64,000 bases of DNA from a bacterium (GTDB lineage Bacteria > SAR324 > JACQKK01), in NCBI GenBank assembly GCA_035266845.1, contig DATFMP010000054.1:93709-157708 (forward strand). The letters are read 5' to 3'. This document shows, one piece after another, positions 3,229-64,000 of the stretch. The stretch's first letter is position 1. Each line of letters starts with the position of its first letter. The position numbers and the translations under genes were made by a program. Below the pieces are notes generated by a model. That model worked only from the letters and a program-made list of their open reading frames with translations. It was not told the DNA's origin and searched no databases.

Positions 3229-3903
3229 ATGACCCACCATCGTCCGCGTCCCATCCGCCGTGCGGGGCTGCTGATTGCCCTGCTGGCCACCGCGCTGGCA
3301 GTCACGGCTGCGGCTGCGGACACGCCGAGCCCACTGCTGGGCAAGCGGGCCCCACTGCTCTCCGGGCGCGCAGCCTTCGGCGCGGGACTGATCAACCTGC
3401 AGCGGCTGCAGAACGAGATCGTCTACGAGAAGGATGCCCAGGGCAAGCCGGTGCGCGAAGGCAATCGCATCAAGGTGCACATCGTGCGCAATGCGGTGGT
3501 GCTGAACTTCTTCGCCACCTACTGTGCGCCGTGTGTCCGCGAGATTCCCACCTTCAACCGCATCGCGAAGTCGTACGAGGGCCGGCCGGTCAAGTTCGTG
3601 TACGTGAACGTGGATACGGAGAAGACCGCCGATCAGGTGCGCGAATTCGCCCGTTCCAAGGGCATCGCGGTGGAGATGATCCTACCGTCCGTCCGGTATG
3701 CGGTGCAGGCCTACAGGATCGACGCCCTGCCCCGCATCGTGGTGATCGATCGCAAGGGGATTGTCACGCACGTGGTGACAGGCTTTCAGGAGGACCTGGC
3801 CAAGCAACTGGGCGAGGTGCTGGCCCCCGTGCTCGCCCAGCCGGATCCAGGCGCCGCGCCGCTCAAACGATCGGCCAAGCAGAAGGCGAAGGCCACGCGG
3901 TAA
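3229..3903 (+). CDS. TlpA/ResA-like periplasmic thiol:disulfide oxidoreductase (thioredoxin fold, CxxC)
   Basis: GGAG RBS. N-terminal signal peptide (LLIALLATALAVTAAAA). FATYCAPCVREIP CxxC motif, redoxin fold, K/A-rich C-terminal tail. Confidence 0.75.
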   Translation: MTHHRPRPIRRAGLLIALLATALAVTAAAADTPSPLLGKRAPLLSGRAAFGAGLINLQRLQNEIVYEKDAQGKPVREGNRIKVHIVRNAVVLNFFATYCAPCVREIPTFNRIAKSYEGRPVKFVYVNVDTEKTADQVREFARSKGIAVEMILPSVRYAVQAYRIDALPRIVVIDRKGIVTHVVTGFQEDLAKQLGEVLAPVLAQPDPGAAPLKRSAKQKAKATR

Positions 3904-6101: not shown

Positions 6102-6259
6102 AGGTTCTCCTCGCAAATATGGATGGTTGCGACAAGCAGCCAAGGGCTGGGGCATTGGCTAGCGAATACGGTCCAGGAAAGCCGGCGAGCGTTCCGCGTC
6201 GCAGCCAATTACGCAAAAGCCACGGCGAAAGTCAATAGCGGCACAGGCCCCGTTCAGGG

Positions 6260-6997: not shown

Positions 6998-7081
6998 AGG
7001 TCGCTCGTTCCTCCTTCTTGGTGGCGCCGTGCGAGAGCGATACGCACGGGGCGCGGTCCCGTTGTTCCGATGCGGTGAGAG

Positions 7082-8014: not shown

Positions 8015-8060
8015 CCGTGTTGTGATTCAGGCCAAAGCCTTGTGCATTCCTGCGGCGATG

Positions 8061-14352: not shown

Positions 14353-16251
14353 TCAGGTCTCCTCGTCCAGCAGGCGGATCAGGTCACGCAGACGCTGGGC
14401 CGGGGTGGCACGCACCATGTAGCGCCCCTGGGTCATGCCCTGAAAGGCGGAGCGGTAGAAGTCCAACTGGGCCTGCTGCGCGGCAAAGGCCGTGATGCGC
14501 GAGCGCAGTTCGCCCACGTCCTCGAACAGGTGCAGGGCGAAGCCGGGCGAGATGGCGCGCCGCACCTGATCCACCACGGGAAACTCCGCCCAGCTCAGCA
14601 TGTGCACCAGCGTATTGCCGCGGGCATCGAAGAGCAGGCGGCTCAGCGAGGCGCGGTCCATGCCGTAGACCAGATGCCGCAGGGGCAGCAGCGTGTCGAT
14701 CAGGTACTGGCAGCGGCTGAAGTAGTATTCCGTATACAGCGCCACCCACAGCGCCAGCCGGCCCTGCGGCAGCTTGTGGGCACGGTGCAGGCCGATCAGC
14801 GTGCGCGTGAGCTGCAGGTGCCGGCGCTGGGCCTCGCCCTCGGCCAGCTCGTAGCGCTCCGTGCGCTCGCGCAACATCACGGGCATGGCCTCCAGCCAGC
14901 GCTGGCGGAAGGGGCCGTCCAGCGCCTCGGCCACAGAGGCCAGCACCGGCTCCGCCAGCCCCGCCTGGCCCATTACGCGGATGAGATCCTGCAGTTCGCG
15001 GTCGGAGAGAAAGCCCGCCATGCGGGCCCAGGGCACCCGGCCCTGGGCCCAGCCCGTGGCGCGAAAGATGGCCTGCCGATTGGGCAGGCCCTGAGCCGGC
15101 AGCGCCATGCCCTTGGCCGTGATGCGCATCAGCCAGTGCCACGTGTGGGGCGGGATGGCCAGCACCCACTCCAGGTAGCCCTCGTCCATGCGCGCCGTCT
15201 GCCGCGCGATCAGCCCACCGCCCTCCAGGCGCTTGGTGACGGCATCGATGGCGTCGCTGGGAATCTTGCGCGCGGCCAGCAGGCGCCAGCGCATGGGGGT
15301 CTCCGCGAAAGCCTCCCACAGCTTGGCCGAATCGGCGAAGAGGGCGCGGAACATATCGCCCAGGAAGCGCTCCTGCCCGGAGCGGCTGAGCCGGATCAGT
15401 TGTCCGGCCGCTGCGGCCGGCAGCACCACGAACAGCTCCAGCGCCTTCTCGTCACCCAGTTGCAGGCGCGCCACCGTGGGCGGCCCGTCCTTGCCCACCA
15501 GTGCGGCCATGGCCTCGGCATCCACGACCTGGCACTGCAGGCCCGCGGGGCGCTGGAAGAGGCGGTTGCCGATCTCGCCATCGTTGCGCCCGAAGAACGT
15601 CTGCAGCCATCCGGCCAGCATAAGCTCCGAGATCTGCGCGCCCTGCTCCAGCCCCGGGGGCGGCGGGGGCGGCTCCCACTGCGGGCGGCACAGATAGGCC
15701 CCCTCGTTGATGGAGAACAGCGCGCGCTGCGTGGCCTTCTGGGTGGCCCGCTCCTCGATCAGGTCGCGACCCGCCGCCGTCACCAGCAGGCGCAGCACAA
15801 AGCCGTTGCCGCGGGGCACGGTAAACACGCCCGTGGCCATCGTGTAGCTCACCTCGCCACCCAGGTGGTGCGCGGTGAACCCCGTCACGTTGCGGGAGAC
15901 CTGCAAGCCGGTCAAGCGGTTGCGGCGCTTGCCGATGAAGTTGAAGGGCTCGGCCGCCGTGCTGACGACCTGCTCCAGCAGCTTGTGGAACGGCATGCGC
16001 TCGCCCGCCAAGCGCGTCAGCCCCGCCACGTCGTGCTCGGTCAGCGCGAAGACGAACGGCACCTCGGCCTTGGCCGCCAATTGCGGCAGAAGCACGGTCT
16101 CCACATCGCTCCAGCGCAGCTTGAGCGTGTTGGTGGTGGAGAGCTCCACCCGCTCCAGTGTCACCGCGCTGCCCGTCAGGCTCGTGAGCGACGTGCCCAC
16201 GGCCATCATCACCGACTGCGCGAAGAAGCCGAAGTAGGTCTCGATGTTCAT
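14353..16251 (-). CDS. large hypothetical protein (~630 aa), two-domain with a PPPPPPG linker
   Basis: Start taken at MNIETYF (alternative upstream start at 16308). The opposite-strand 624-aa ORF is R/Q/H/A-rich (shadow). No family recognised. Confidence 0.55.
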   Translation of the reverse strand: MNIETYFGFFAQSVMMAVGTSLTSLTGSAVTLERVELSTTNTLKLRWSDVETVLLPQLAAKAEVPFVFALTEHDVAGLTRLAGERMPFHKLLEQVVSTAAEPFNFIGKRRNRLTGLQVSRNVTGFTAHHLGGEVSYTMATGVFTVPRGNGFVLRLLVTAAGRDLIEERATQKATQRALFSINEGAYLCRPQWEPPPPPPGLEQGAQISELMLAGWLQTFFGRNDGEIGNRLFQRPAGLQCQVVDAEAMAALVGKDGPPTVARLQLGDEKALELFVVLPAAAAGQLIRLSRSGQERFLGDMFRALFADSAKLWEAFAETPMRWRLLAARKIPSDAIDAVTKRLEGGGLIARQTARMDEGYLEWVLAIPPHTWHWLMRITAKGMALPAQGLPNRQAIFRATGWAQGRVPWARMAGFLSDRELQDLIRVMGQAGLAEPVLASVAEALDGPFRQRWLEAMPVMLRERTERYELAEGEAQRRHLQLTRTLIGLHRAHKLPQGRLALWVALYTEYYFSRCQYLIDTLLPLRHLVYGMDRASLSRLLFDARGNTLVHMLSWAEFPVVDQVRRAISPGFALHLFEDVGELRSRITAFAAQQAQLDFYRSAFQGMTQGRYMVRATPAQRLRDLIRLLDEET

Positions 16252-16406
16252 CCGCCGCGCCGCGGCGGGGGACGAACGAAGGCGGGTAGGCGGGGCGAGC
16301 GTGCTCACGGATCAGGTATATCACGCCCTCTCCGTGCGACGAAGCCGCGGACTCGCCATGTCGGCATGGCGGGCCCGTGGGACACGGCTCTAACGGTGCG
16401 CTGACC

Positions 16407-24879: not shown

Positions 24880-26730
24880 CTAGTCGGCCAGCTGCTCGAA
24901 CGTCTGGCTGAGGTCATCCCGCACCGTGGAGCGACGCCGCGAGAATTCGGCGAACGCGGTGTCGTGGAAGCCCCGGGAAACGGAGTACAGAAACTCGTTC
25001 AGCACGTTGGCCATCGCCATCATGGTGGTCTTCTTGCGCTTGACCGAGGTGATATCCAGCTCCAGCAGGGCGCCGGGCAGGATGTGGTACGGATTCACCA
25101 GCCCCTCGAACTCCTCGAACTTTTGCTCGAGGAAGTGCAAGCGGCTTTCCACGATGGTGCGATCGACCGGGTGCTGATTGCCGAAGATCTGCTGCAGCCG
25201 GTGCTTCGTGGCCGAGACGCGCTTGCGGAGCTCTTCCACGATGTACAGGTTGGTCTTGTTCATCTCCTCCACTTCGGTCGAGCGGGGCGGGACGAACACG
25301 ACCTCGTTCCACAGCTTCGGCGGCTCTTCCTCCACCTCTTCTTCGACGGCGCGGGAGAACCAACCGCCGGCCTTGGGCTTATCCTTCTTGAGGTATTGGC
25401 GCGCAATGTCCTCGTAGTCCTGGATGCCCTTGGCGGCCTTGTTGTCGTTGTACAGGACGTCCACCACGTTCACGACCTTCATGATCTCGGTATGAAGCTC
25501 GTCGAACTGGGCATCGTAGGCATTGCGCATACCCCGCACCTGCTCGTCATCGTAGTACGACAGGCGGATGCCGTAGCGCTCGTCGGGCAGCGCATTGACG
25601 TCCGTGTCCTCGTACTCGCGGATGACGCACTGGCGCGCGTTCTTGTAGTTCTCGATGTGCTGGTAGCCCATCTTGGAGGTGTCCAGCACCGAGGTCAGGT
25701 TGTTCACCGCCGTGTTGAAGCCGCGGTTCCGGATGTTCTCGTTGTCGATGATGCGCTTAATGTTCTCACGCACATTGAGCGGATCGAACTCGTCCGGATC
25801 GATCTCGGCGTGCAGGCCCTCGATGCGGTCCATGAAGCGCTTGGCGATGAACTGGTAACGCCGCGACTGTTCGTTGTTCACGTCGTCGTCGACGTAGTTG
25901 TCCAGGGCCTTGATCTTCTCGAACATCACCTCGGTGTCCGACAGCTCTTCCTTGCCTTCATCGATCAGGGTGTTGTTCAGCTCGGTGATTTCCTGCTCGA
26001 TCAGGGCGTGGATGTGCTTGCTGATGATGTCCTTGATGATCGTCGCCAGCGAGGTCTGGTAGTGATAGATGGGGCTGATCAACTCCGAATCCAGGATGTT
26101 GATCGCCAACTTCACATCCATCACCGTCTTGGGCTTGTAAAAGTTGTTCTTGAACGAGCACTTGGCGATCGCATAGGCGTTCTCGCCACGCACGAACGCG
26201 CCCACGTCCGACTTTTGACGCAGCAGCGCGTTGGTCTCGTTCTCCAACTCGTACATCCCACGCTGCACGTGCCCTTGCAGGTGCCCGTAGATGTTGACGA
26301 TGGACTTCTCAATCTCGCCCGTATTGAACTTGTCGATCCCGCCGATTTTGTCCAGGATCTCGGCGATCTCCCGCGGTGTATAGCGGTTGAGCGCTCGATA
26401 CTCCTCCTTGTCCACCAGATCACGTACCTTCTTGCCCAGTTCATCCTCCATAGTGGTGATGTACCGGTTGTACATGTTCTGGAAGTTCTGGTTGAAGTAG
26501 TTGTGCAGCTTCGACTTGATGGAGCCCATCACGTCGAGCTTTTCCAACACTTCAGGCGGGAGCTTCGCGTGGATATGGTTCAGGACCTTATCCACTTCCT
26601 CGTCGATGAGGAGCTTGGACTCTTCGTATTCGTTCCTGTTGTCACGATTGAGGCTGTTCCGCGACCCCACCGCACTCGGCTTTTCCGGGTGGATGACGTT
26701 GGGTCCTCGGGTCATGCTGTCTCGAGCCAT
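24880..26730 (-). CDS. hypothetical hydrophilic protein, K/N/Y/I/E/D-rich (616 aa), no recognised domain
   Basis: Long ORF with AGGAG RBS 8 nt upstream of the ATG, TTGACA box upstream and a strong terminator downstream. No P-loop and no signal peptide. Amino-acid composition is atypical for this genome but codons are GC3-rich. Confidence 0.8.
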   Translation of the reverse strand: MARDSMTRGPNVIHPEKPSAVGSRNSLNRDNRNEYEESKLLIDEEVDKVLNHIHAKLPPEVLEKLDVMGSIKSKLHNYFNQNFQNMYNRYITTMEDELGKKVRDLVDKEEYRALNRYTPREIAEILDKIGGIDKFNTGEIEKSIVNIYGHLQGHVQRGMYELENETNALLRQKSDVGAFVRGENAYAIAKCSFKNNFYKPKTVMDVKLAINILDSELISPIYHYQTSLATIIKDIISKHIHALIEQEITELNNTLIDEGKEELSDTEVMFEKIKALDNYVDDDVNNEQSRRYQFIAKRFMDRIEGLHAEIDPDEFDPLNVRENIKRIIDNENIRNRGFNTAVNNLTSVLDTSKMGYQHIENYKNARQCVIREYEDTDVNALPDERYGIRLSYYDDEQVRGMRNAYDAQFDELHTEIMKVVNVVDVLYNDNKAAKGIQDYEDIARQYLKKDKPKAGGWFSRAVEEEVEEEPPKLWNEVVFVPPRSTEVEEMNKTNLYIVEELRKRVSATKHRLQQIFGNQHPVDRTIVESRLHFLEQKFEEFEGLVNPYHILPGALLELDITSVKRKKTTMMAMANVLNEFLYSVSRGFHDTAFAEFSRRRSTVRDDLSQTFEQLAD

Positions 26731-27069: not shown

Positions 27070-27858
27070 TCACTCACCGGTCGGCCCCTTAACGGCGTAG
27101 AAGACCCGCGGGTTGTCCCACTTCAGGGTCACGGTACCAGGCACGCCCGTGATGATCAGCTCGAAGGGGTGCGAGCCCACCGACACACCCAGCCGCCCTT
27201 TGGAGAGCTTGGGGAAGTCCACCTGGTAGGCCTGAGACCAGCGGTCGAGCCCCCGGAAGTACTTGTTGATGTAAAGAAAGGTGCGGCTCTCCGGCCGGAT
27301 GCGCTGGATGCGCAGCGGGGATTCCAACTGGCCCTCGTCGTCGCGCAGAAACAGCCGCCAGGGAGCATTCGCCTTGTCCAACTGCGAGGGTTCGTTGGTG
27401 CCCTCATAGGTGAACAGGAGGATCGAGATCTCAGTCTCGAAGGCCTGCTCCTGCTGCGCCTGGAGTTGCTTCACGTCCGCATCGGAGAGCAGGAACTGCT
27501 TGCGCAGCATGTCCACATACAGCCGCCGGTAGGTGCGGTCCTGCACGATCGCATCCACTACCAGCGCCGGGCGGAAGTCCTCGTAGAAGTTGCCGCTGCG
27601 GTAGGTATCCCGGAAGTAGTCCGCCGTCGCGGCGTCCCGGTAGTGCAGCAGCGTGAAGGGACCCTGGGGCGCATCGCGCCGACGCGCCGTGGAGCAGGCG
27701 GCAAGCGCCAGCACCAGCAATGCCGACAGCAGCAGCCGACCGGCCAGGGCAGTGCCCGCACGACCGGGCAGGGTGGGCACCGGACGCGGGACAGGGGCGC
27801 TGGCCGCGGCCCGTAGGGGGCCGTGCAGCGGGGCGCGATGGCGGGCTCGTGTTGTCAT
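27070..27858 (-). CDS. hypothetical lipoprotein
   Basis: Start at MTTRARHR. Lipobox LALAAC. No recognised domain. Confidence 0.55.
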   Translation of the reverse strand: MTTRARHRAPLHGPLRAAASAPVPRPVPTLPGRAGTALAGRLLLSALLVLALAACSTARRRDAPQGPFTLLHYRDAATADYFRDTYRSGNFYEDFRPALVVDAIVQDRTYRRLYVDMLRKQFLLSDADVKQLQAQQEQAFETEISILLFTYEGTNEPSQLDKANAPWRLFLRDDEGQLESPLRIQRIRPESRTFLYINKYFRGLDRWSQAYQVDFPKLSKGRLGVSVGSHPFELIITGVPGTVTLKWDNPRVFYAVKGPTGE

Positions 27859-28080
27859 TCCGCCTGCGATGTGACAAAAATGCGCGTTTAAAAAGCCTTT
27901 GCCGTGCAGGGTGATGCTGCCCTGCAACGTAGTCGATCGCGGCAGGCCTGTCCATTGCCGCCACCCCGCCGGGTGGGGCGGCGCCGCCTGAGGGCGCGGC
28001 GCCGTGCACGCGGGGTCGGCGCTATCCGGGTTTGAGCCATTGGAGCCGAAGCAGGCGAACGAACGAGGAGACACACAACC

Positions 28081-32826: not shown

Positions 32827-33130
32827 GGAGCGTCCTCGGGAATCGCGGGGGGTCGGAGCGCGGGGGGCCCGCCCGGACCCGCCGTCAGCGCCCTTCGGAT
32901 AGCACACTAGCCGCCCGCGCCGCAATGCGGCAAGCGCAGGGCCGATCCGTCCGCGGCACCCCCTGTGGGTTGATGTAGCTTGACTTTTGGCCCGGTTTTC
33001 CGAAGATAGGCAGACTTCCTGCAGAGCCGCCGCGGCAGACGACGCCCGGCCATGCCCGCCCCGGCGGGCTGCGCCGCGTGCGAGCCGGTGGATGCAGGCT
33101 GGCAGGCACCAACGCCAACAAGGACCGCAC

Positions 33131-34258
33131 ATGGAGTTCAAGATTCAACCCGTCCCGGCAACGGAGCGGCGTCCGAAACCTACGGACGAGAACAAGTTAG
33201 GCTTCGGCAAGATCTACAGCGACCACATGTTTACGGCCACCTGGAGTCCTAACGGCGGGTGGGCCCAAGGCACGGTGAAGAAGTATGGTGCGCTCGACCT
33301 GGCTCCTGCGGCGTTGGTACTCCATTACGGGCAGACGATCTTCGAGGGCCTCAAGGCCTACCGGAACCAGCACGGCACGATCAACCTGTTCCGGCCGCTG
33401 AAGAACCTGGAGCGCTTCAACCGCTCCGCGGCGCGGCTGGACCTGCCGCAGGTGCCCGAGGAACTGTTCATGGGTGCGATCGAGGCGCTGCTGGAACTGG
33501 ATCACGAGTGGATTCCGCACTCCCACGGCACCTCGCTCTACATCCGGCCCACCATGATCGGCGCCGAGCCCTACATCGGGCTCAAGTCGGCCTCCGAGGT
33601 GCTGCTGTTCTTCATCACCGGCCCGGTGGGTGCGTACTATCCCGAGGGCTTCAACCCGGTGAAGATCACCGTCTGCGAGGCGTACTCGCGCGCGGGGCCG
33701 GGCGGCCTGGGCTCGGCCAAGACGGCCGCCAACTATGCGGCGAGCCTGCTGGCCGAAAAGGAAGCCATCAAGCGCGGCTTCACGCAGGTGCTCTGGCTGG
33801 ATGCGGCCGAGCGCAAGTACGTGGAGGAAGTCGGCTCGATGAACATCCTGTTCAAGATCAAGGGCAAGGTGGTCTCCCCTCCGCCGGGCGAGACGATCCT
33901 GGCGGGCATCACGCGCGATTCCGCGCTGCAACTGCTACGCAGTTGGGACGTGCCCGTGGAGGAGTACCGCATCACCATCGACGAGGTGCTGCAAGCCCAT
34001 GCCGACGGCACGCTGGAGGAGGTCTTCGGCGCGGGTACCGCGGCTGTCATCTCCCCGGTGGGCCTGCTGGAGTACAAGGGCCACAACTACGAGGTCGCCG
34101 ATGGCCAGACCGGCCCCGTGGCCCGCAAGCTGTTCGATGAGCTGATGGGCATCCAATATGGCCTGCGTCCGGATCCCTTCCAGTGGATTCACGAGGTCGT
34201 GCCCACCACGCTCAAAGCCAACGTAGCCTCCCAACCGGTAGCCGCGACCCGCTCGTAA
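33131..34258 (+). CDS. ilvE: branched-chain amino acid aminotransferase (fold type IV)
   Basis: MEFKIQP...GFGKIYSDHMF...QTIFEGLKAYR...EVFGAGTAAVISPV. Confidence 0.88.
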   Translation: MEFKIQPVPATERRPKPTDENKLGFGKIYSDHMFTATWSPNGGWAQGTVKKYGALDLAPAALVLHYGQTIFEGLKAYRNQHGTINLFRPLKNLERFNRSAARLDLPQVPEELFMGAIEALLELDHEWIPHSHGTSLYIRPTMIGAEPYIGLKSASEVLLFFITGPVGAYYPEGFNPVKITVCEAYSRAGPGGLGSAKTAANYAASLLAEKEAIKRGFTQVLWLDAAERKYVEEVGSMNILFKIKGKVVSPPPGETILAGITRDSALQLLRSWDVPVEEYRITIDEVLQAHADGTLEEVFGAGTAAVISPVGLLEYKGHNYEVADGQTGPVARKLFDELMGIQYGLRPDPFQWIHEVVPTTLKANVASQPVAATRS

Positions 34259-34426: not shown

Positions 34427-35563
34427 ATGACGTTGCAGATGCAGATCGCGCCCGTCCCGCCCGAGCAGCGGCAGGCCAAACCACAGGATCCCACCCGACT
34501 GGGCTTCGGCCGGGTGTATACCGACCACATGTTCACGATGCGCTGGAGCGCCGAGCACGGCTGGCACGACGCGCAACTGGGGCCCTTCGAGCCGCTGGCG
34601 CTTTCCCCCGCGGCCATGGTGCTGCACTATGCGCAGACGATCTTCGAGGGCCTCAAGGCCTATCGCACGCCGCAGGGTACCGTGAACCTGTTCCGCCCGG
34701 CGGACAACGCCGAGCGCTTCGACCGCTCGGCCGAGCGCCTGGCCCTGCCACTGCTGCCGCCCGGGGCCTTCGTGGCGGCGGTGGAGGCGCTCGTGGCGCT
34801 GGAGCGGGACTGGGTGCCGCAGGCCCCGGGCACCTCGCTGTACGTCCGCCCGACCCTGATCGCCACCGAGCCCCACCTGGGCGTGCGACCCGCCGCCGAG
34901 GCCCTGTTCTTCGTCATCGCGGGCCCGGTGGGGCCGTACTACCCGGAGGGCTTCGCGCCCGTGCGCATCACAGTGGCCGAACACTACGTGCGCGCCGCGC
35001 CCGGCGGGCTGGGCGCAGCAAAGACGGGTGCCAATTACGCCGCCAGCCTGCTGGCCGCCGAGGAGGCGAAGGCGGAGGGTTACACGCAGGTGCTGTGGCT
35101 CGATGCCATCGAACGCCGCTACGTGGAGGAGGTCGGCGCCATGAACATCGCGTTTAAGATCGGCGGCACCGTGATCGCTCCGCCGGCGAGCGGCACTACC
35201 CTGGCCGGCATCACCATCCGCTCCGCGCTGCACCTGCTGCGGGGCTGGGACGTGTCGGTGGAGGAACGCCGCATCACCATCGACGAGGTGCTGCAGGCCC
35301 ATGCCGACGGCACGCTGGAGGAGGTCTTCGGTGCGGGCACGGCCGCGGTGATCTCGCCCGTGGGCCTGCTGGCCTACCAGGGCCGCCAATACGAGATCGC
35401 GGGGGGCGGCACGGGCCCGCTGGCACAGCGGCTGTTCGATGAGCTGACCGGCATCCAGTATGGCCAGCGCCCCGACCCCGATGGGTGGATCCGTGCAGTG
35501 CCGCCGGCGCCGCCAACACCCCGGAGGCAGGCCCCACTGCCGCTGCCGGCGGCCGGGCGCTGA
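34427..35563 (+). CDS. ilvE: branched-chain amino acid aminotransferase, tandem paralog
   Basis: Collinear with the upstream copy (~60% aa identity by eye). Shares a ~66-nt near-identical DNA stretch with it. Confidence 0.85.
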   Translation: MTLQMQIAPVPPEQRQAKPQDPTRLGFGRVYTDHMFTMRWSAEHGWHDAQLGPFEPLALSPAAMVLHYAQTIFEGLKAYRTPQGTVNLFRPADNAERFDRSAERLALPLLPPGAFVAAVEALVALERDWVPQAPGTSLYVRPTLIATEPHLGVRPAAEALFFVIAGPVGPYYPEGFAPVRITVAEHYVRAAPGGLGAAKTGANYAASLLAAEEAKAEGYTQVLWLDAIERRYVEEVGAMNIAFKIGGTVIAPPASGTTLAGITIRSALHLLRGWDVSVEERRITIDEVLQAHADGTLEEVFGAGTAAVISPVGLLAYQGRQYEIAGGGTGPLAQRLFDELTGIQYGQRPDPDGWIRAVPPAPPTPRRQAPLPLPAAGR

Positions 35564-42693: not shown

Positions 42694-44493
<1,800 letters not shown>

Positions 44494-44717: not shown

Positions 44718-45956
44718 TCAATCCGGGCGGCGGAAGGCCACCACCGCATTGTGGCCACCGAAGGCGAATGCGTTGGACAGCACGGCCGTAAGCGGCACTT
44801 CCCGCGCGGTATGCGGCACATAGTCCAGGTCCAGCTCCGGGTCCGGATCGTCCAGGTTGATCGTGGGCGGGATCACGCCGTGCCGCAGTGCCAGCACGCA
44901 GGCCACGGCCTCGATGCCCGCCGCCCCGCCCAGGCTGTGGCCCACCATGGACTTGATGGAACTGACCGGCACCTGGCCGGCCTGCTCGCCCCAGATTTCC
45001 TTGATGGCCCGCGTCTCCAGCGCGTCGTTGAGCGGCGTGGAGGTGCCATGGGCATTGATGTAGCTCACGTCCTGCGGGTTCAGCGCGGCATCCTGCAGGG
45101 CCAGCCGGATGCAGCGCACGGCGCCCAGCCCCTCCGGGTGCGGGGCCGTCAGATGGTACGCATCGGCGTTGATGCCGTAGCCCGCCACCTCGGCCAGTAT
45201 CTCCGCACCCCGCCCCCGCGCGTGGCTCAGGCTCTCCAGCACGAGCACCCCGGCGCCCTCGGCGAGCACGAAGCCGTCGCGCTCGCGGCTGAAGGGCCGG
45301 CTGGCGGTGGTCGGGTCGTCGTTGCGCGTGGAAAGGGCGCGCAACTGGTGGTAGCCGTCCATGGCGAAGGCGGAGATGGTGGACTCGCTACCGCCCGCCA
45401 CCATCACGTCCGCCCGGCCCAGTCGGATCAGGTCCGTGGCCGCGGCGATGTTGTGGTTGCCGGTGGCGCAGGCGGTGGAAATGCACAGATTGGGGCCGGC
45501 CAACCCGTGATGGATGGCCACGTTGGCCGCCGCCATGTTCGCGATCACGATGGGCACCGTGAGCGGGTGGAACTTGCCCGGCCCACGCTCCAGGAACTTC
45601 GCGTACTGCTCCTCCAGGAAGGGCTCGCCCCCGATGCCCGAGCCGATCGCCACCCCCACGCGCTCCCGGTCCGCCGCCAGGGCGCCGTCCGCGCCGGGCT
45701 GCAAGCCCGCTTGGCCCAGGGCCTGCTGGGCGGCGGAAAAGGCAAGCTGCGCGAAGCGCGCCATGCGCTTGCCCAGGCGCGGATCGAAGGCGAAGTCCTT
45801 CACCTCGCCCGCAATCCGCACGCCCATCGCCGAGGCATCGTAGGCGCGCACCGGGCCGATGCCCGAGCGTCCCGCCAGCAGGGACTCCCAGAATGACGGC
45901 ACGTCGTTGCCGATGCACGAAACGACGCCCAGACCGGTCACGACCACGCGTTCCAT
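44718..45956 (-). CDS. beta-ketoacyl-[ACP] synthase I/II paralog
   Basis: MERVVVTGLGVVS...ACATGNHNI...GHSLGGAAG. Second KAS in the window, outside the fab cluster. Confidence 0.85.
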   Translation of the reverse strand: MERVVVTGLGVVSCIGNDVPSFWESLLAGRSGIGPVRAYDASAMGVRIAGEVKDFAFDPRLGKRMARFAQLAFSAAQQALGQAGLQPGADGALAADRERVGVAIGSGIGGEPFLEEQYAKFLERGPGKFHPLTVPIVIANMAAANVAIHHGLAGPNLCISTACATGNHNIAAATDLIRLGRADVMVAGGSESTISAFAMDGYHQLRALSTRNDDPTTASRPFSRERDGFVLAEGAGVLVLESLSHARGRGAEILAEVAGYGINADAYHLTAPHPEGLGAVRCIRLALQDAALNPQDVSYINAHGTSTPLNDALETRAIKEIWGEQAGQVPVSSIKSMVGHSLGGAAGIEAVACVLALRHGVIPPTINLDDPDPELDLDYVPHTAREVPLTAVLSNAFAFGGHNAVVAFRRPD

Positions 45957-46151
45957 CACCTTTTGCTCCCAGACGGTTGGCTGTGGGCGACCCGTGCGGG
46001 CTACCCGATGCGAGGGCGCATCACCACGCACCCCTACCGGCCATGATGCGTTCCCGGCGCGAACTGCAGAGCCGATAGAGAAATCGGAATAGCCTTCTTG
46101 AATACACGCTTTCGCGCCGGACGGCAGCCCTGGATTGTGCGCTCCGGCTCT

Positions 46152-49056: not shown

Positions 49057-50211
49057 ATGAAGGAAGACCACTACATCGGGGTGCTCGACCCGCGGATCCT
49101 GGAGTACGTCAAGTTCAGCCGCTTCCACTGGTGGGAAATCGGAGCCATCGCCGTGGTGCTGGGGGCCCTGCTCGGCTATGCCCTGCTGGCCGTAGTGCTG
49201 GATCGTCGCGCGCGTGCCCGGCGCCGCAAGCACAAGCAGCTGTCGCGGCTGGAGGCCTGGCTCGACGCCTGGCGGCTGGAGCCGGACGAGGAAGAGGCCC
49301 TGTGGGAGCTGGCCGGCCAACGCAAGCCGCTGGCCCTGTACGCGCTGCTGGCGGAGCCGCTGCGCTTCGAGCGCGCCGTGCACGAGGCACTTATCAGCGG
49401 CAAGCACCTGCCCTTCACCGAGCGCGTGCGCGATGCGCTGGGCTATCGCAGCGACAACCTGAGCTGCCCCGTCGTCTCCACACGACAGTTGATGGTGGGC
49501 GACCACCTGCGCTTTGCCGTGTGGGAAGAGGGGCGCCCGCAGCACCACTATGCCATCGTCACGGCCGTTTCCGCCGCCGGCCTGGCCGTCGAGCTGACCG
49601 AGGCGGGCTTCCGCGACGTGACGAGCGCGCGCGGGGAGACCGAACTTTTCTTTCTGCGTGGGAACGACCTGGAGGTGCGCTTCCCGCTGGCCGTCCGCAC
49701 GGCGGATGCGGAGCGCCACCGGCTGCTGCTGGCGCATCAACTGGTGCGCGGGGGGCAACGGCCGCGCAGCACGCGCCTGCCCATGCTGCGACCCATCACC
49801 TTTCGCCTGCGGGCCCAGGCCGCGGAGCTGGCCTCACCGCACGCCCTCGCCACCGGCGAACTTGCCGCCGGGCAACCGGGCGGCGCCCAGGGTCAGGAGA
49901 TGCGCGGTGCGCTGCTGGAGATGAGCGAGGGAGGCTTCTCGATGGTGACCCTCCACCCCGTGGCCGAGGGCGCGTATGTGGAGCACGCCATGCAACTGCC
50001 GCGGGGCCGCTACCTCCCCATCGTGGGGCGCGTGCTGGACTGCCGCGCATTCGCCGGCAACCGCTGGCTGGTGCGCTGCGAGCTGCGCGGGCTGACCCCC
50101 ACCCAGCGCAACACGCTGTCGCAGGTGCTGCGGCTGGAACAGGCGCGGCGCCTGCGCGCCATCCAGGCCGAGCGCCGCAAACGCCTGCGGGAATCCGGCG
50201 AGGCGCCCTAG
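49057..50211 (+). CDS. hypothetical membrane-anchored protein, possible degenerate PilZ-like domains
   Basis: N-terminal TM. Weak LEMSEGGF (DxSxGG-like) motif. Call speculative. Confidence 0.4.
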   Translation: MKEDHYIGVLDPRILEYVKFSRFHWWEIGAIAVVLGALLGYALLAVVLDRRARARRRKHKQLSRLEAWLDAWRLEPDEEEALWELAGQRKPLALYALLAEPLRFERAVHEALISGKHLPFTERVRDALGYRSDNLSCPVVSTRQLMVGDHLRFAVWEEGRPQHHYAIVTAVSAAGLAVELTEAGFRDVTSARGETELFFLRGNDLEVRFPLAVRTADAERHRLLLAHQLVRGGQRPRSTRLPMLRPITFRLRAQAAELASPHALATGELAAGQPGGAQGQEMRGALLEMSEGGFSMVTLHPVAEGAYVEHAMQLPRGRYLPIVGRVLDCRAFAGNRWLVRCELRGLTPTQRNTLSQVLRLEQARRLRAIQAERRKRLRESGEAP

Positions 50212-57532: not shown

Positions 57533-58594
57533 CTAGCGCACGAGACCGCGGGCCCGCACGCGCCAGGTCAGTTCGACCTCGCCGCCGCGCACGCCCAGCA
57601 ATTCGTTGTGCAGGTTGGCCACCGTGCAGCAGTGGTTGGGGATCACCGTCACGCGCTCGCCCACCACGGGCTTGCGGACGCAGGCGCTCACGTCCACGTT
57701 GGCGTGTTCCTCGGAGTAGCCATAGATGACCGCCTCCGGATACTCGACGACCGTGCCGTATGTGGCGTCGCGCCAGAGCAGGCGGTCGGCGCTGAGGGTC
57801 TTCGAGCCGCCGTCCAGGATGGCGCGCTCGGCGGTGGGCCGGCTGACGACGGTCATCAGCACGCGCATGGCGCACTCGTCCAGCGTGGCCGTGCCCGCGG
57901 CAAGCGTGTTGCTGTCGTTGAAGACGTAGGTGCCCGCACGATGCTCCGTGATCTGCGGAATCTCGTGCACTCGCCAGGTCTGCGGCGTGCCACCGCCGCT
58001 CACGGTCTCCGCCTCCAGCCCGGCGGCGCCCAGCAAGGCCACGGCCTCGGCCAGGAAGGGCGGCGTGGTCTCTAGGTTCGTGGGAAAGGTCATCAGCCCC
58101 GCGAAGCGCACGCCGGGTATCCGGTCGATCTCCTGCGCCAGCACGAGGGCCTGGGCGGGCGTCTGCACGCCCGTGCGGCCCGCGCCCGTGTCGCACTCGA
58201 TCAGCAGCGGCACCTCCAATCCCGCCGCTGCGGCGGCCTCGCTGATGCCCTGGGCCACCGGGGCGGAGTCCACCGCCACGCTGACCCGACAGCGCCGCGC
58301 CAACGCCGTCAGGCGGGCCAGCTTGGCCGGGCCGATCAGGTTATACGGGATGAAGATGTCGTCGAAGCCCGCATCCGCGAAGACCTCCGCCTCTCCCAGC
58401 TTCTGGCAGGTAATGCCCTGGGCCCCCGCCTCCAGTTGCAGGCGGCCGATCTCAGGGGTCTTGTGCGTCTTGATGTGCGGCCGGAAGCGCAGGCCGTGCG
58501 CATCGCAGTAGGCCTGCATCTTGCGGATGTTCGCCGCCATGATGTCGAGGTCCACCGTGACGATGGGCGTTTCCAGATCCTCCACGCGGGGCAT
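57533..58594 (-). CDS. alanine-racemase-fold PLP enzyme (DSD1 / D-threonine aldolase / D-serine dehydratase-like family)
   Basis: FRPHIKTHK PLP-lysine motif. 353 aa. Immediately downstream of the predicted selenoprotein. Confidence 0.7.
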   Translation of the reverse strand: MPRVEDLETPIVTVDLDIMAANIRKMQAYCDAHGLRFRPHIKTHKTPEIGRLQLEAGAQGITCQKLGEAEVFADAGFDDIFIPYNLIGPAKLARLTALARRCRVSVAVDSAPVAQGISEAAAAAGLEVPLLIECDTGAGRTGVQTPAQALVLAQEIDRIPGVRFAGLMTFPTNLETTPPFLAEAVALLGAAGLEAETVSGGGTPQTWRVHEIPQITEHRAGTYVFNDSNTLAAGTATLDECAMRVLMTVVSRPTAERAILDGGSKTLSADRLLWRDATYGTVVEYPEAVIYGYSEEHANVDVSACVRKPVVGERVTVIPNHCCTVANLHNELLGVRGGEVELTWRVRARGLVR

Positions 58595-58708: not shown

Positions 58709-59557
58709 TCAGGCCCCCTCGCTGAAGCGGTGCGGCAGCTCCACCACAGTACCCGGCTCGCGGACGGTGCGCAGCAGATCCAGCGCTGCCGCCACCACCT
58801 CCCGCTGCAGATCTGCCGCGCCGGGTGGCCCGCAGGTGGCGCCGCGCGGGAAGCGGGCCACCGCCGCGCGTGGATAGCATACGCGCCGCACGCGGTCGGC
58901 CATGGTGGCCAGCGCCACGGTGGGGATGCCCGCCGCTTCCACCACTCGCTGGATCAGTCCGCCGGACTGATGGCAGACCGGTCACACAGGCACGTGCAGC
59001 AGCACATCCACGCGGTCCTGGCGCAAGCGCTGCACGATCTGCGGCGCGCTGCGCTCCACGATGTGGTCAGGGCGCGTACAGTAGCCCGAGATGCTGTAGT
59101 GCCTGGAAGCCACCTCGCCAATGACACCTGCCGTCGCCAGCTCGCGCAGCCGCGCGTGGGGATAGACGCAGTTGCGGTCCGTCTCGGCACGCGTGTGGTC
59201 GTAGTGGTCGTGCGCAATGGCCAGCGCCTCCGGCGCCACGCCTTCCGGAAGCTCGCGGAAGCTCCAGTCGCCCTCGATGTCCTCGGCGCGGAACGGCGGC
59301 TGCTCGCCCGGCACATAGAGCCCGGCGGTGCTGAGCAGGGCGACGCGGCACTCGGCCAGCGGCTTGGCCTGCGGTGCCCAAGGGCTCTCCGTGTTCACGG
59401 CAAAGGGATAGGTCTTGAAGGACGCACCCCAGTCCTTGGCCTCCAGCAGGGGCCGCGTGGCCTCGAGCCACGCCGGATAGCGGGAGCGGAACGTCTCCAC
59501 GTCCATAATGTGCACGGCTGCCTCCGGGTCGGACATTGATGGTGGGGGCCACGCCAC
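58709..59557 (-). CDS. predicted selenoprotein, glycine/betaine/sarcosine/D-proline reductase selenoprotein-B-like (GrdB/PrdB family); in-frame TGA (Sec) at 58984..58982
   Basis: Two same-frame ORFs (58982..59557 and 58709..58945) are separated only by TGA. Read-through gives ...LLHVPV-U-PVCHQSGG.... The second ORF has no RBS of its own. A SECIS-like hairpin lies 10 nt downstream. Confidence 0.6.
58953..58971 (-). promoter_or_regulatory. SECIS-like stem-loop (AUCAGUCC-GGC-GGACUGAU) beginning 10 nt 3' of the in-frame UGA
   Basis: Perfect 8-bp stem with a G-rich apical loop ~18 nt from the UGA. This is consistent with the bacterial SECIS geometry described in the literature. Confidence 0.5.
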
Positions 59558-59609
59558 GGCTACGGACGCATCACCCCTCTGCCCGACTGTATCGAACTTG
59601 ACCGATCGG

Positions 59610-61346
59610 TCAACCCTTGGAAGACGCGCGCAGGGCGGGGTCTTCCAGGCGGGCGCGGATGCGGGCGAGCTGCATGAAGCGCACGTCCGGAGGCACGGCG
59701 TGGCGGTCCAGCATGTACGATGTGATCTCGGCGGCCGCCTCCAGCTCCGCGGGCACCACCTTGTTGGCGCCGGCCGTGAGCAGGCCCCGGATATCGCCCA
59801 CGTAGCGCGAGCGGATCACGATGTGCAGATCAGGCGCAATGCGTCGCGCGGCACCGATGGCGCGCAGTGCAGCGCCGGGGTCGTTGATGGCCAGCACCAA
59901 CTCGCGGGCGTGGGGCGCCCCCACAGCCTCCAGCACCTCGGGACTGGTGACGTCGCCGAAGCAGGCCGGCTCGCCGTTGCGGGCAGCGCGGCGCACGTTC
60001 TCCGCGTTGAGATCGACCAGGATGTAGGCGATGCCGGCCTCGCGCAGGGAGTGGGCCAGTTCCAGGCCGACCACCCCCAGGCCCGCCACGATGACGTGAT
60101 CCTGCAAGCCCGCGAACTGCTCGGCGGTCTCCCCCGCCTCGCGCACGCCCAGGTATTGCGTCAGCACGCGGATGCGGCCCGCGCCCGCCGCGATGTGCGG
60201 CCCGGCTGCCAGCGCCAGGGGCGCGATGATCATGGAGAAGATGGCGGCGGCGGAAAGGTTGGCAGCCAGGGCGGCGCCGCCCCAGTGCGCATCCACGATG
60301 CCCGCGCTCTGGCCCGCGCGCAGCAGCACGAAGTAGAACTCGCCCACCTGCGCCAGCCCCGCCGCGGAGAGGATGGACACCCGCGCCGGCAGGCGCATGG
60401 AAAGGCCAGTGAGCAGCACCACCAGGAACTTGCCGGCGATGATGGCCACCAGCAGGCCCACGATGGGCAGGGGATGATCCAACAGCGCGCTGGCATCCAG
60501 CAGCATGCCCACCGAGACGAAGAACACGCTGGTGAGCACCTCGCGGAACGGGAACAGATCCGCCAGGGCCTGGTGCCGGTATTCGCTGCCGGCCACCACC
60601 AGGCCCGCCATGAACGCGCCCAGGGCCAGCGAGATGCCCGCGCTGGAGACGATCCAGGCCGTGCCCAGGCAGACCAGGAACGTGGAGAGCATGAACAGGT
60701 TGCGCTGGCGCGTGCGGGCCACGAGGTGCAGCGCCCGCGGCACGATGATCCGCGCGGCGATGAGCACCCCCGCCAACACCCCCACGGCCTTGCCCAGCGT
60801 CAGCAGCACGTGCATGGCCGAGGTGCCCGTACCGGCCAGGATCGGGATCGCCAGCATCATGGGCACCACGCTGAGGTCCTGAAATACCAGGATGCCCAGC
60901 GTGAGGCGGCCATGGGGCGCTTCCAGTTCACCCCGATCGTTCAGCGCGCGCAGCACAATGGCCGTGCTGGATACGGCCACCAGAAAGCCCAGGAAGATGG
61001 CGCTGGCGGGCGCCATGCCGAAGATGATGGCGAGCACCATGCAGACCAGGATGCTGAGGCCCATCTGCAAGGTGCCGCCAATCAGGATCGGCTGCCAGAG
61101 CCGCCGAACGCGGTCCAGCGAAAGCTCCAGGCCAATGCCGAACAGCAGCAGCACCACGCCCACTTCGGCCAGGATTTCCACGTCGTGCAGATCGCGGATG
61201 AGCCCAGAGCCGTGCGGGCCCACCAGGATGCCGGCGACGATGAACCCCGCGATGGACGGGATGCCGACCTTCTGCAGCACGGCGACCACGACCACGGCCA
61301 CCGCGAAGATCACAACCAGGTCGCGCAGGAAGGCGAGTTCACCCAT
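59610..61346 (-). CDS. Kef-type K+/H+ antiporter (CPA2) with C-terminal TrkA-N/KTN domain
   Basis: 12-13 TM. VIVAGLGVVGLELA Rossmann motif in the C-terminal domain. Confidence 0.85.
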   Translation of the reverse strand: MGELAFLRDLVVIFAVAVVVVAVLQKVGIPSIAGFIVAGILVGPHGSGLIRDLHDVEILAEVGVVLLLFGIGLELSLDRVRRLWQPILIGGTLQMGLSILVCMVLAIIFGMAPASAIFLGFLVAVSSTAIVLRALNDRGELEAPHGRLTLGILVFQDLSVVPMMLAIPILAGTGTSAMHVLLTLGKAVGVLAGVLIAARIIVPRALHLVARTRQRNLFMLSTFLVCLGTAWIVSSAGISLALGAFMAGLVVAGSEYRHQALADLFPFREVLTSVFFVSVGMLLDASALLDHPLPIVGLLVAIIAGKFLVVLLTGLSMRLPARVSILSAAGLAQVGEFYFVLLRAGQSAGIVDAHWGGAALAANLSAAAIFSMIIAPLALAAGPHIAAGAGRIRVLTQYLGVREAGETAEQFAGLQDHVIVAGLGVVGLELAHSLREAGIAYILVDLNAENVRRAARNGEPACFGDVTSPEVLEAVGAPHARELVLAINDPGAALRAIGAARRIAPDLHIVIRSRYVGDIRGLLTAGANKVVPAELEAAAEITSYMLDRHAVPPDVRFMQLARIRARLEDPALRASSKG

Positions 61347-61492: not shown

Positions 61493-64000
61493 TCACAGCA
61501 GCACGGGCTGATCGGCCAGGTCCGGCTCGCCCAGGCGCCGCAGCATCTCCGCACGCACGCCATCACGCAGGGCTACCGCGGCGTTCCAGCCGTTGTCCTC
61601 CGGCTGGAGCGGCGGGGCCAGTTCCATGCGCACGTGCACGCGGCGCGGCAGCCACTGTCCATCGCGCAGCATGGAGCGCGTTCCGCGCAGCACGACCGGC
61701 ACGATGGGTGCGCCACCCTCCACGGCGGCCTGGAAAGCACCCATGTGGAAGGGCAGCAGCCCCGGGTGCCGGCGGAACGTGCCCTCCGGGAAGAACACGA
61801 GCGAGCGACCCGCCTGGAGGGATGCCCCCACGCGCCGGGCGTCCTCCACCCCACGCTGCTTGTCGAAGCGCTCCACGAACTCCGTGGACAGGCGGCGCAG
61901 GAACCAACGCGAGATGAAGCTACCCACCAGTTCGCGCTTGGCCACGAAGCTCCATAGTCCGGGCAGGCCCGCGACGATCATCAGGCCGTCGGTATAGCTG
62001 GAGTGGTTCACTGCCAGCACACAGGGCCGCTCCCGCGGCAGGTGTTCGAGGCCCTGTACGGTCAGCCGGATGCGGGCCAGCTTCAGCAGCAGCCGCCCCG
62101 CCCCGCGCACGACCGTGAAGCGCGTGGCGGCCCCCGGCAGCAGCACGACCAGCAGCCACGTCGGCAGCGCGATCACCAGCAACAGCGCCCACACGTAGAC
62201 GCCATAGGCCGTGTCCGCCACCACGCGCCAGAGCCGGCGCGTCTGGGGCGCCAGTCCGGCCAGCCAGAGCCGCACCACCTGCAGCCACACGGCGCGCGTG
62301 CCGCCGCGGGTCGCGCCCTGCTCATAGAGCAGGCGGCTGGAGGCACGGCGGATCTTGCCGCTGGAGGTCTTGGGCACGGTGTGGGGCGGCGCCAGCACCA
62401 CGTCGTCCAGCGGTGTGCCGAGCAGGTCCACGGCCAATCCCTCCACCCTCATGCGCAGGGCCTCCAGGCGCTCGGGATCACGCTCGCGGGTCTCGGCCAG
62501 GGCCACCAGGCGCTCGGTGCCCGTGCGCGGATCGGTGCTGCCGAACACGGCCACGCAGCCCTTGCGAACGCCTTCCAACTCCCCGATGGCATCCTCCAGC
62601 TCATGGGGATAGATGTTGCGCCCGGCGCGGATGATGATGTCCTTGCGGCGCCCGGTGAGGAAGACGTCGCCACCGGCGATGTAGGCCATGTCGCCGGAAT
62701 CCAGCCACTCCCCGTGCAGCAGGGCCTTGGTGTCCGTCGCGTTGCGGTAGTAGCCGCTGGTGGCCGAGGGGCCCTTGAACTGCAGCCGCCCTTCCTCGCG
62801 CTCGCCCAGTTCCAGGCCAGCCTCGTTCACGACGCGCACCTCGTGGCCCGGCAGCGGCTGGCCGCAGGCGACGAACTCCAGCGCGTGCGGATCGTCCGCC
62901 GCCGCCAGTTCGGCTCGCCCGGCGTGGTTCAGCGCGTCGCGGGAGATGCGGTCCACCAGCGGGTCGCGCCCCAGCGGCGGGAATGCCAGACCCACTGAGC
63001 ACTCGGCCAGGCCGTAGACCGGCTTCATGGCATCGTGCCGCAGCCCGTACTTCGCAAATCGCTCGGTGAAGCGCCGCAGCGTGCCGGGAATCACCGGCTC
63101 GGCGCCGTTGAAGGCCACGCGCCACGAGCTGAGGTCCAGCCCCGCGAGTTGCTCATCGCTGAGGCGCTTGAGGCACAGCTCGTAGGCGAAGTTGGGACCA
63201 CCGGAAAGCGTGCCGCGGTGCTCATGGATGGCCCACAGCCAGCGCTCCGGGCGCGCCAGAAAGGTGAGCGGCGACATCAGGAACAGCGGCACGGAGAAGT
63301 ACATGCTGCCTAGCCACGCGCCGATGAGCCCCATGTCGTGGTAGAGCGGCAGCCAGCTCACGAACACGTCCGTGGAGTCCGCCTGCAGGCCGCGGCCCAT
63401 TGCGCGGATGTTGGCCAGCAGGTTGTCGTGGGTGAGCACGACACCCTTGGGGTTGCCCGTGCTGCCCGAAGTGTATTGCAGGTGGCCGATGTCCGAGCCC
63501 TGCCCGGCATGCCGGGGCAGCGCCGCCCCCTCGGGGCGCAGCTCGTCCGGGGTGACGATGTGCTGCAGGGAGAGCACCTGCATGCGCAGCAGCCGCGCGG
63601 CGATCTTGGCCTCGGGCACCGTGATGAGGATCGCCGCCCGGGCGTTGTCCAGGATGCCCGCGTGGCGCCGCAGGTGGTCCTCGATCTGCGAAGGCCGCGC
63701 CGGCGGGTAGATGGGCACCGGAATGCCCCCGGCCATCAGCACGCCCATGAAGCTGTGGAAGTACTCCAGGCAGCTTGGCAGCATGATCGCCACGGGCTGC
63801 CCCGGCCGCAGGTCGCGCTCCAGCAGGCCGGCCGCCGTGCGCTGCGCATCGGCGAAGAGGTCGCCATAGGTCATCACCTGCGGCCCGCCATCCTCGCCCA
63901 GCAGCGTGATGTGCGGCCGCTCGGCATGGGCGTTGACGTGCCAGTCCAGCACGTCCATCAGTGTGGCGGCCTGGTCCGGCGCGGCCTCCACGGCGGCCAG
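61493..64000 (-). CDS. fusion protein: N-terminal fatty acyl-AMP ligase / acyl-ACP synthetase, TM segment, C-terminal PlsC-type acyltransferase (5' end at or beyond window edge)
   Basis: YTSGSTGNPKGV AMP-binding motif. NHSSYTD HX4D acyltransferase motif. FFPEGT. The reading frame is open to position 64000. Confidence 0.8.
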   Translation of the reverse strand: MAAVEAAPDQAATLMDVLDWHVNAHAERPHITLLGEDGGPQVMTYGDLFADAQRTAAGLLERDLRPGQPVAIMLPSCLEYFHSFMGVLMAGGIPVPIYPPARPSQIEDHLRRHAGILDNARAAILITVPEAKIAARLLRMQVLSLQHIVTPDELRPEGAALPRHAGQGSDIGHLQYTSGSTGNPKGVVLTHDNLLANIRAMGRGLQADSTDVFVSWLPLYHDMGLIGAWLGSMYFSVPLFLMSPLTFLARPERWLWAIHEHRGTLSGGPNFAYELCLKRLSDEQLAGLDLSSWRVAFNGAEPVIPGTLRRFTERFAKYGLRHDAMKPVYGLAECSVGLAFPPLGRDPLVDRISRDALNHAGRAELAAADDPHALEFVACGQPLPGHEVRVVNEAGLELGEREEGRLQFKGPSATSGYYRNATDTKALLHGEWLDSGDMAYIAGGDVFLTGRRKDIIIRAGRNIYPHELEDAIGELEGVRKGCVAVFGSTDPRTGTERLVALAETRERDPERLEALRMRVEGLAVDLLGTPLDDVVLAPPHTVPKTSSGKIRRASSRLLYEQGATRGGTRAVWLQVVRLWLAGLAPQTRRLWRVVADTAYGVYVWALLLVIALPTWLLVVLLPGAATRFTVVRGAGRLLLKLARIRLTVQGLEHLPRERPCVLAVNHSSYTDGLMIVAGLPGLWSFVAKRELVGSFISRWFLRRLSTEFVERFDKQRGVEDARRVGASLQAGRSLVFFPEGTFRRHPGLLPFHMGAFQAAVEGGAPIVPVVLRGTRSMLRDGQWLPRRVHVRMELAPPLQPEDNGWNAAVALRDGVRAEMLRRLGEPDLADQPVLL

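Follow-up and report, generated by a model that had tools for sequence, protein, structure and literature searches.

In the canonical system for D-proline reduction, the genes prdA and prdB lie in one cluster with the genes for PrdC/PrdH, and PrdA and PrdB form a tight complex in which the substrate is held on the pyruvoyl group of PrdA and the selenocysteine (Sec) of PrdB attacks its alpha-carbon; the U151C form is inactive (PMC11229817). Genes labelled 'proline reductase PrdB' (pfam07355, with a UxxC motif) have also been reported from environmental surveys, where 42 such genes made up the third most abundant selenoprotein family of the Sargasso Sea set (PMC1088965), and where the GOS data gave a family of 235 Sec and 110 cysteine (Cys) members (PMC2398784). 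A 'proline reductase' selenoprotein was also listed in 2006 for Anaeromyxobacter dehalogenans and Geobacter uraniumreducens (PMC1794560). Here, a gene of this type is described from a stretch of 64,000 nt (hereafter 'the window') of contig DATFMP010000054.1, assembled from a bacterium of the SAR324 lineage. With a probability of roughly 0.85, the minus-strand locus 58709..59515 is one gene for a 268-residue selenoprotein, from the stand-alone, PrdB-like lineage within the GrdB/PrdB superfamily (Pfam GRDB), in which an in-frame TGA genuinely encodes Sec with the help of a functional selenocysteine insertion sequence (SECIS).

The window protein resembles the PrdB family of the earlier surveys in its Pfam domain, in the UxxC motif, in the mixture of Sec and Cys forms and in having hosts beyond the Stickland-fermenting clostridia, and a taxon is shared as well, with one TGA-containing locus (L019) coming from Anaeromyxobacteraceae. 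We infer from the common domain, motif and taxa, rather than from a sequence alignment, that the clade of the window gene and the survey family are the same, no substantive difference between them having come to light. This is, then, not a new kind of protein and will be no surprise to a selenoprotein specialist: it is a member of a long-known selenoprotein family. No paper treating the form without PrdA as a separate family was found in the literature, where the terms 'PrdB-like' and 'GrdB-like' gave only unrelated papers on Synergistota.

The comparison with characterized reductases is more mixed. The window protein is similar in size to PrdB of Clostridioides difficile and Clostridium sticklandii, and has the same U-x-x-C motif and a SECIS-type element in the coding region past the UGA, but unlike them it carries an N-terminal extension of about 30 residues, and prdA, prdC, prdH and prdF are not nearby. 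Its host also differs from the clostridial hosts of PrdB, being a high-GC Gram-negative bacterium (with Omp85 and H+-PPase). Like GrdB, GrdF and GrdH, it passes the PF07355 threshold, and it aligns to the Sec-containing C-terminal half of GrdB (model positions ~196-431). However, it has 268 residues versus about 435 in GrdB, the N-terminal half being absent, there is no grdA or grdE nearby, and its U-P-V-C-H-Q motif has no third Cys, unlike the UxxCxxC of GrdB (PMC13188914).

In public databases, the gene and all of its relatives are split at the TGA, into a 'GRDB family' protein of 174-189 residues and a hypothetical open reading frame (ORF) of 69-93 residues. This is a systematic annotation error, and the gene and dozens of its relatives are probably one selenoprotein of ~270 residues each. 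The locus also touches on an old puzzle, namely that a 'proline reductase' selenoprotein family ranks with the most abundant ones of ocean metagenomes, yet the members examined here occur without PrdA. Two observations may be helpful in this regard: no gene partner is conserved across 18 loci, and a TGA form in cultured Bacillaceae offers an experimental handle.

A conserved TGA and the frame beyond it

A preliminary description of the window, made from the sequence alone, had noted that the minus-strand ORFs 58982..59557 and 58709..58945 share a frame and are parted only by a TGA at 58984..58982. The ORF list agrees on the frame, and the minus-strand translation of 58709..59557 contains a single internal stop, in the context ...HVPV*PVCHQSGGLIQR... 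(or, more widely, ...RLRQDRVDVLLHVPV*PVCHQSGGLIQRVVEAAGIPTV...). The read-through frame is indeed continuous, as proposed, but its length of 282 residues has to be revised, as the GTG at 59557 is merely the start of the longest ORF. The likely product is a 268-residue protein from the GTG at 59515, because homologues of 268 residues begin with MQIMD and a Shine-Dalgarno-like GGAGG (59521..59525, minus strand, read directly from the sequence) lies 5 nt upstream of this codon. The complete coding sequence would thus run over 268 codons (58709..59515, minus strand) from the GTG to the true stop codon, a TGA at 58709..58711 that is evident from the sequence and its translation. Alternative starts are the ATG codons at 59536 and 59506, both used by public gene calls, as well as the GTG at 59557; the Sec is residue 178 when counted from GTG 59515 and residue 185 from ATG 59536. 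Both parts of the gene look coding, since GC content at third codon positions (GC3) is high on either side of the internal TGA (0.88 before and 0.84 after it, in a window of 68.6% GC).

From a set of 5.8 billion proteins, about 45 close relatives with 53-100% identity were retrieved, each of which has 174-189 residues and covers ~63% of the query. The more distant relatives have 275-320 residues and are full-length. When aligned, the short database entries end exactly at the position of the TGA, with ...VPV or ...IPV. The full-length homologues of alignment A1 have Cys at this position in 20 of 20 cases, mostly as CPVCHQ where the window protein has UPVCHQ, which is the pairing that the preliminary description had predicted for Cys-containing orthologs; close Cys relatives are also present in many JGI metagenome contigs. 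The proposed U-x-x-C arrangement is found in the translation as U-P-V-C, and its Cys (TGC, 58973..58975, minus strand), three residues past the Sec, does not vary in alignment A2 or across the CPVCHQ clade and is presumed to be the resolving cysteine of the redox pair.

At the DNA level, the nearer relatives (clade 1) were represented by five metagenomic sequences and 18 loci from named genomes, amounting to 22 distinct sequences from at least six phyla. The named genomes belong to Pseudomonadota, Tectomicrobia, Rokubacteria, Symbiobacteriaceae, Anaeromyxobacteraceae, Chloroflexota, Pelotomaculum/Clostridia and Acidobacteria, and include two cultured Bacillaceae. TGA (58982..58984 in the window, minus strand) occupies the Sec codon in 22/22 of these sequences, and the frame stays open past it for ~90 conserved codons, with the pattern UP[VIL]C.QS.GL...EAAGIPTV...PRA...FP.G. 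The two cultured Bacillaceae with the TGA form are aerobic, and are Rossellomorea aquimaris EaN35-1 (L023, 10001-10675) and Pseudalkalibacillus sp. Hm43 (L031, 10001-10675). A second, more distant clade (clade 2), whose proteins have ~300 residues and the motif CPVCHQT, was sampled by a metagenome scan with the Cys-clade alignment that yielded 80 loci from a pool of more than 577 relatives. The codon at the TGA position is TGC or TGT in 69 of these loci and TGA in the other 11 (L038, L039, L050, L061, L077, L079, L088, L093, L099, L103 and L109).

Selection on the two parts of the gene was compared through the ratio of nonsynonymous to synonymous substitution rates (dN/dS) against five relatives, using 80 codons after the TGA and 120 codons before it. 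Values were 0.27-0.44 after the TGA and 0.22-0.38 before, and the part past the TGA is therefore under selection comparable to that on the part before it.

These data bear directly on whether the TGA could be a genuine stop, leaving a protein of ~177 residues and perhaps a separate downstream peptide of ~78 residues. Gene callers do split the gene in this way in every database entry, and an in-frame GTG is available at 58945. However, the 12 codons between the TGA and this GTG (PVCHQSGGLIQR) are the most conserved peptide of the family and match the Cys forms. Moreover, no consistent start or ribosome-binding site (RBS) exists past the TGA, the offsets of the called downstream ORFs varying from locus to locus, which agrees with the earlier remark that the downstream part has no start or RBS context of its own. 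Both halves also match a single PrdB model jointly, and dN/dS downstream equals that upstream. Termination at this codon is accordingly considered very unlikely.

A pseudogene, or an assembly or sequencing error that turned TGC or TGT into TGA in a Cys-type gene, is another explanation that might be raised, given that one base separates these codons and that the source is a metagenome-assembled genome. Against it stand the recurrence of this TGA across 33 sequences whose samples and phyla are unrelated, purifying selection past the TGA and the co-occurrence of a hairpin with the TGA. In addition, two other assemblies (L112, L113), namely the ENA assembly with the source contig (ERZ27257098, contig k141_948691) and an independent Logan assembly, carry an identical gene region, which argues against an assembly artefact. 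Such an error or pseudogene is effectively refuted already.

The covarying hairpin past the TGA

The preliminary description had placed a perfect hairpin, ATCAGTCC-GGC-GGACTGAT, ten nucleotides after the UGA. It is present in the sequence at 58971..58953 (minus strand), exactly 10 nt past the TGA, with an 8-bp stem that pairs 58971..58964 with 58960..58953 around the loop GGC (58963..58961). A bacterial SECIS is expected to be a stem-loop directly 3′ of the UGA whose apical loop is small and includes a G (PMC1088965), and the window hairpin has this form.

The comparison among relatives was made on a codon-anchored alignment of 22 sequences (A3), in which the stem corresponds to columns 20-27 paired with columns 31-38. 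In this alignment 92% of the cells are paired, versus 8-45% in controls with the 3′ arm displaced by 1-3 columns; compensatory changes affect four of the eight stem pairs, and the covariation score is reached by 0/500 shuffles. The same stem was found independently by RNAalifold. Thus, it is from comparative data only (the pairing in 92% of cells and the 0/500 shuffles) that the hairpin of the preliminary description is recognized as the real one. RNAfold on the single sequence favours another stem, of 9 bp (58980..58972 with 58963..58955), which was rejected, as it is without covariation on the alignment, with 72% of its cells paired and a score that is equalled or exceeded in 146/500 shuffles.

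The changes in the stem are largely brought about through synonymous substitutions. For instance, one swap from U-A to C-G combines CAT to CAC with ATC to GTG, and another from G-C to A-U combines CAG to CAA with CTG to TTG and is fully synonymous, while the Bacillaceae show a swap from U-A to A-U and carry the compensated hairpin CAGAC/GUCUG. In the Acidobacteria locus (L030), a stem is formed at this position by an unrelated sequence. A G opens the apical loop in 22 of 22 sequences, and the loop has 3 nt in the window gene. Hence the expectation of a SECIS at this place is borne out by a covarying hairpin with a G-initiated apical loop at a fixed distance from the UGA.

Folding energies over +8..+45 show stronger hairpins after TGA than after Cys codons. 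TGA forms of clade 2 have a mean of -14.1 kcal/mol versus -9.95 for the Cys forms (p = 0.0012), and the Sec forms of clade 1, with a mean of -13.1 kcal/mol, are likewise stronger than the sequences after Cys codons (p = 0.0003). All 11 Sec forms of clade 2 have the hairpin CCAGAC-CGUGA-GUCUGG, in which the Ser codon AGT completes the stem CCAGAC/GUCUGG; in the Cys forms this Ser codon is AGC in 48 cases, AGT in 7 and TCN in 5.

The SECIS of Escherichia coli fdhF is a coding-region stem-loop whose start is about 11 nt past the UGA and whose loop is small and bears a G. The window hairpin is like it in these features and in its compensatory changes, but the stem is shorter and simpler (8 bp with a 3-nt loop), and no bulged U was identified.

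Family placement and proposed chemistry

The preliminary description assigned the protein to a GrdB/PrdB-like reductase family. Membership of the superfamily stands, as both PF07355 and the PrdB model TIGR04483 are matched, while the label of a reductase has to be softened to that of a stand-alone PrdB-like selenoprotein. Specifically, the match to Pfam GRDB (PF07355) has 39 bits and E = 8e-10, above the gathering score of 22, and the best NCBIfam match is PrdB (TIGR04483), of whose 238 model positions 16-234 are covered, with a score of 145.5 bits that misses the cutoff of 300. Ten other members of the two clades score 91-174 bits on the same model, and the whole group is PrdB-like in architecture and outside the curated equivalog. 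The models for GrdB, GrdF and GrdH (TIGR01917, NF040794 and NF040795) are matched only in their C-terminal halves, with 47-53 bits against cutoffs of 602-800. On TIGR01918 ('various_sel_PB') the window protein has 53.4 bits and falls below the cutoff of 65.45, which two clade members pass (L021 with 73.0 and L028 with 71.6). Since the curated thresholds are missed and no PrdA or GrdA partner is present, the protein is to be called PrdB-like and is no demonstrated subunit of a proline or glycine reductase; the name D-proline reductase is unsuitable for it.

A sequence search of the PDB gave no match. A structural proxy was taken from the model of a Cys form, P0043, which is 41% identical and has a predicted confidence score (pLDDT) of 87.8, and in this model the two motif residues sit at the N-cap and in the first turn of a helix.

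In the reading favoured here, the mRNA hairpin (58971..58953) would recruit SelB carrying Sec-tRNA(Sec), so that the UGA at 58984..58982 is decoded as Sec. The Sec would then cap an alpha-helix at its N-terminal end, followed by the Cys three residues on (U-P-V-C), and the selenolate of the Sec would be the attacking or reducing group. The Cys would resolve the intermediate to a selenenylsulfide, to be re-reduced by a cellular dithiol system. A pyruvoyl PrdA subunit is most likely not needed for the activity of the protein. The decoding by SelB, the selenenylsulfide cycle, the reductant and the independence from PrdA are all put forward by inference.

Several points weigh against this reading. 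As a single sequence, the window hairpin is indistinguishable from shuffled sequences (z = -1.32, i.e. 1.3 standard deviations below them). Some Cys forms have strong hairpins as well (L055 and L041), and the hairpin alone is therefore no proof of SECIS function. The 11 Sec forms of clade 2 may be one related group, in which case their agreement would go back to a single event. For the structural argument, the model is that of the proxy P0043 and not of the window protein. Natural Cys forms are abundant although the canonical U151C is inactive, which hints at a chemistry different from C-N cleavage. Finally, no selA, selB, selC or selD was found in the ~74 kb covered, comprising the window, 8.6 kb to its left (read from the contig of a near-identical strain, L114) and ~1 kb to its right (from L112), the source contig (ENA ERZ27257098, 158,712 bp) ending ~1 kb past the right edge of the window.

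As to the hairpins of Cys forms, very stable ones (-18 to -24 kcal/mol) were observed directly past the Cys codon at L055, L041 and L100. The strong hairpins of Cys forms may be remnants of SECIS elements after Sec-to-Cys conversion, a kind of event described in PMC1794560.

The preliminary description had already noted that selA, selB, selD and tRNA-Sec genes are missing from the window. Indeed, the window contains no tRNA, no Rfam family and, in the Pfam-scanned ORFs, no SelA, SelB or SelD domain, and a tRNA-Sec was found neither in the window nor in 24 loci. Since the Sec machinery is not seen in the ~74 kb, one could suppose that the host has none and that the UGA is read through as Cys or Trp, by near-cognate or SelB-independent suppression. 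This explanation is very unlikely as well, as a known selenoprotein family has its catalytic Cys/Sec residue at this position (PMC2398784) and as TGA is the main ordinary stop here. More specifically, TGA is the commonest of the ordinary stops in the window, ending 21 of 34 Pfam-supported genes, and a code in which it is a general sense codon is therefore excluded.

The protein could be the true PrdB subunit of a D-proline reductase of the canonical kind, provided that the genome has the genes for the pyruvoyl subunit PrdA and for PrdC/PrdH at another place. In favour of this, the best NCBIfam match is PrdB and covers nearly the whole model, and 'proline reductase' is the label that earlier surveys gave to such genes (PMC1088965, PMC2398784, PMC1794560). 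Moreover, the Sec would fall near TIGR04483 position ~152, close to U151 (PMC11229817), by arithmetic on the hmmscan coordinates (protein 49-271 to model 16-234) rather than by a residue-level alignment. However, the scores of the window protein and of its clade stay far from the cutoff of the PrdB model, and characterized prdA and prdB share a cluster and their products a tight complex (PMC11229817), while no Gly_reductase/PrdA family was found in the window or in the scanned neighbourhoods. It's also hard to reconcile abundant natural Cys forms with the inactivity of U151C. That there is no PrdA and that Cys forms are common is the reason for not regarding the protein as a canonical proline reductase subunit, and the canonical assignment is judged improbable. 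For the clade as a whole, a function that is independent of PrdA and distinct from proline reduction is favoured by a slight margin only.

Genomic neighbourhood and other content of the window

Searches around the gene point to a selenoprotein gene that stands alone. The 146 ORFs that flank the gene at 18 diverse loci gave 166 Pfam families, none of which occurs in more than four loci, and the PrdA/GrdE, GrdA and thioredoxin families are not among the 25 most recurrent families of these loci. Likewise, no PrdA/GrdA (Gly_reductase) family was detected in the scanned ORFs of the window or in eight Pfam-annotated neighbourhoods. Over about 20 neighbourhoods, therefore, the gene has no conserved partner gene.

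In the window itself, the gene lies between a KefC-like transporter gene upstream and a gene for a pyridoxal 5′-phosphate (PLP) enzyme downstream, with a fusion of a fatty-acyl-AMP ligase and an acyltransferase further upstream. The PLP enzyme (57533..58594, minus strand) is of the D-threonine aldolase / D-serine dehydratase type, with the Pfam domains Ala_racemase_N and D-ser_dehydrat; it scores 213 bits as BhcC-like, below the cutoff of 690, and begins 115 nt past the stop codon of the selenoprotein gene. The gene order is kept in the close relatives L001, L005 and L112 and is not seen in the more distant L007, L008 and L010, nor in the Cys forms L011 and L012. Synteny with the PLP enzyme is confined to close relatives, and any functional link is a putative one.

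A pairing with this enzyme can nonetheless be imagined: the group would be an autonomous enzyme family, and no set of orphaned reductase subunits, whose selenoprotein cooperates, in this lineage, with the downstream PLP enzyme, PLP replacing the pyruvoyl group of PrdA as the carbonyl by which an amino-acid substrate is activated for the attack of the selenolate. If true, it would give non-fermenting bacteria a new route to the reductive cleavage of C-N or C-X bonds, but the proposal is a speculative one and probably wrong; the weaker view, of a clade that functions without PrdA and outside proline reduction, is far likelier, if less striking.

The most persistent upstream neighbour is the acyltransferase fusion (61493-64000, minus strand, running off the window edge), a fatty-acyl-AMP ligase / carrier-protein / acyltransferase protein of 941-951 residues in relatives, which persists in L007, a locus that lacks the KefC-like and PLP-enzyme genes. 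Closer to the selenoprotein gene, a sigma-70-like promoter match (TTGACC-16-TACAGT, 59586..59613, minus strand) overlaps the stop codon of the kefC-like gene; it comes from a consensus scan that gave one site versus 0.1 expected and is weak evidence.

Other candidates for a part in selenocysteine biology did not hold up. The pair of genes for proteins of 437 and 599 residues at 44718..46031 and 42694..44493 (minus strand) was considered as selA-selB by its size and order and rejected, being a beta-ketoacyl synthase (KAS) and FtsH; this second KAS gene (44718-46031) adjoins ftsH and is ordinary housekeeping content. A window-wide scan for other cases of TGA recoding gave only an ordinary fabD/fabG boundary. 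A gene at 3229..3903 (plus strand) was rejected as a second selenoprotein, since its C-A-P-C motif marks a Cys form. Its product carries a signal peptide and is a thiol:disulfide oxidoreductase of the TlpA/Redoxin-like type.

Among the remaining genes, a fatty-acid synthesis cluster with plsX, fabD, fabG and a fabF-like gene occupies 4471-9104 (minus strand), to which the annotation of L114 adds acpP and rpmF; it, too, is of the ordinary housekeeping kind. Tandem genes for class-IV aminotransferases, of the D-amino-acid / branched-chain type, lie at 32987-34258 and 34427-35563 (both plus strand). Five further long ORFs have no Pfam match and show strong coding periodicity (GC3 of 0.81-0.92), at 24880-26730, 14353-16308, 27070-28074 and 11652-12653 on the minus strand and at 49057-50211 on the plus strand, and the first of them (24880-26730) has an unusually low GC content at second codon positions, of 0.29.

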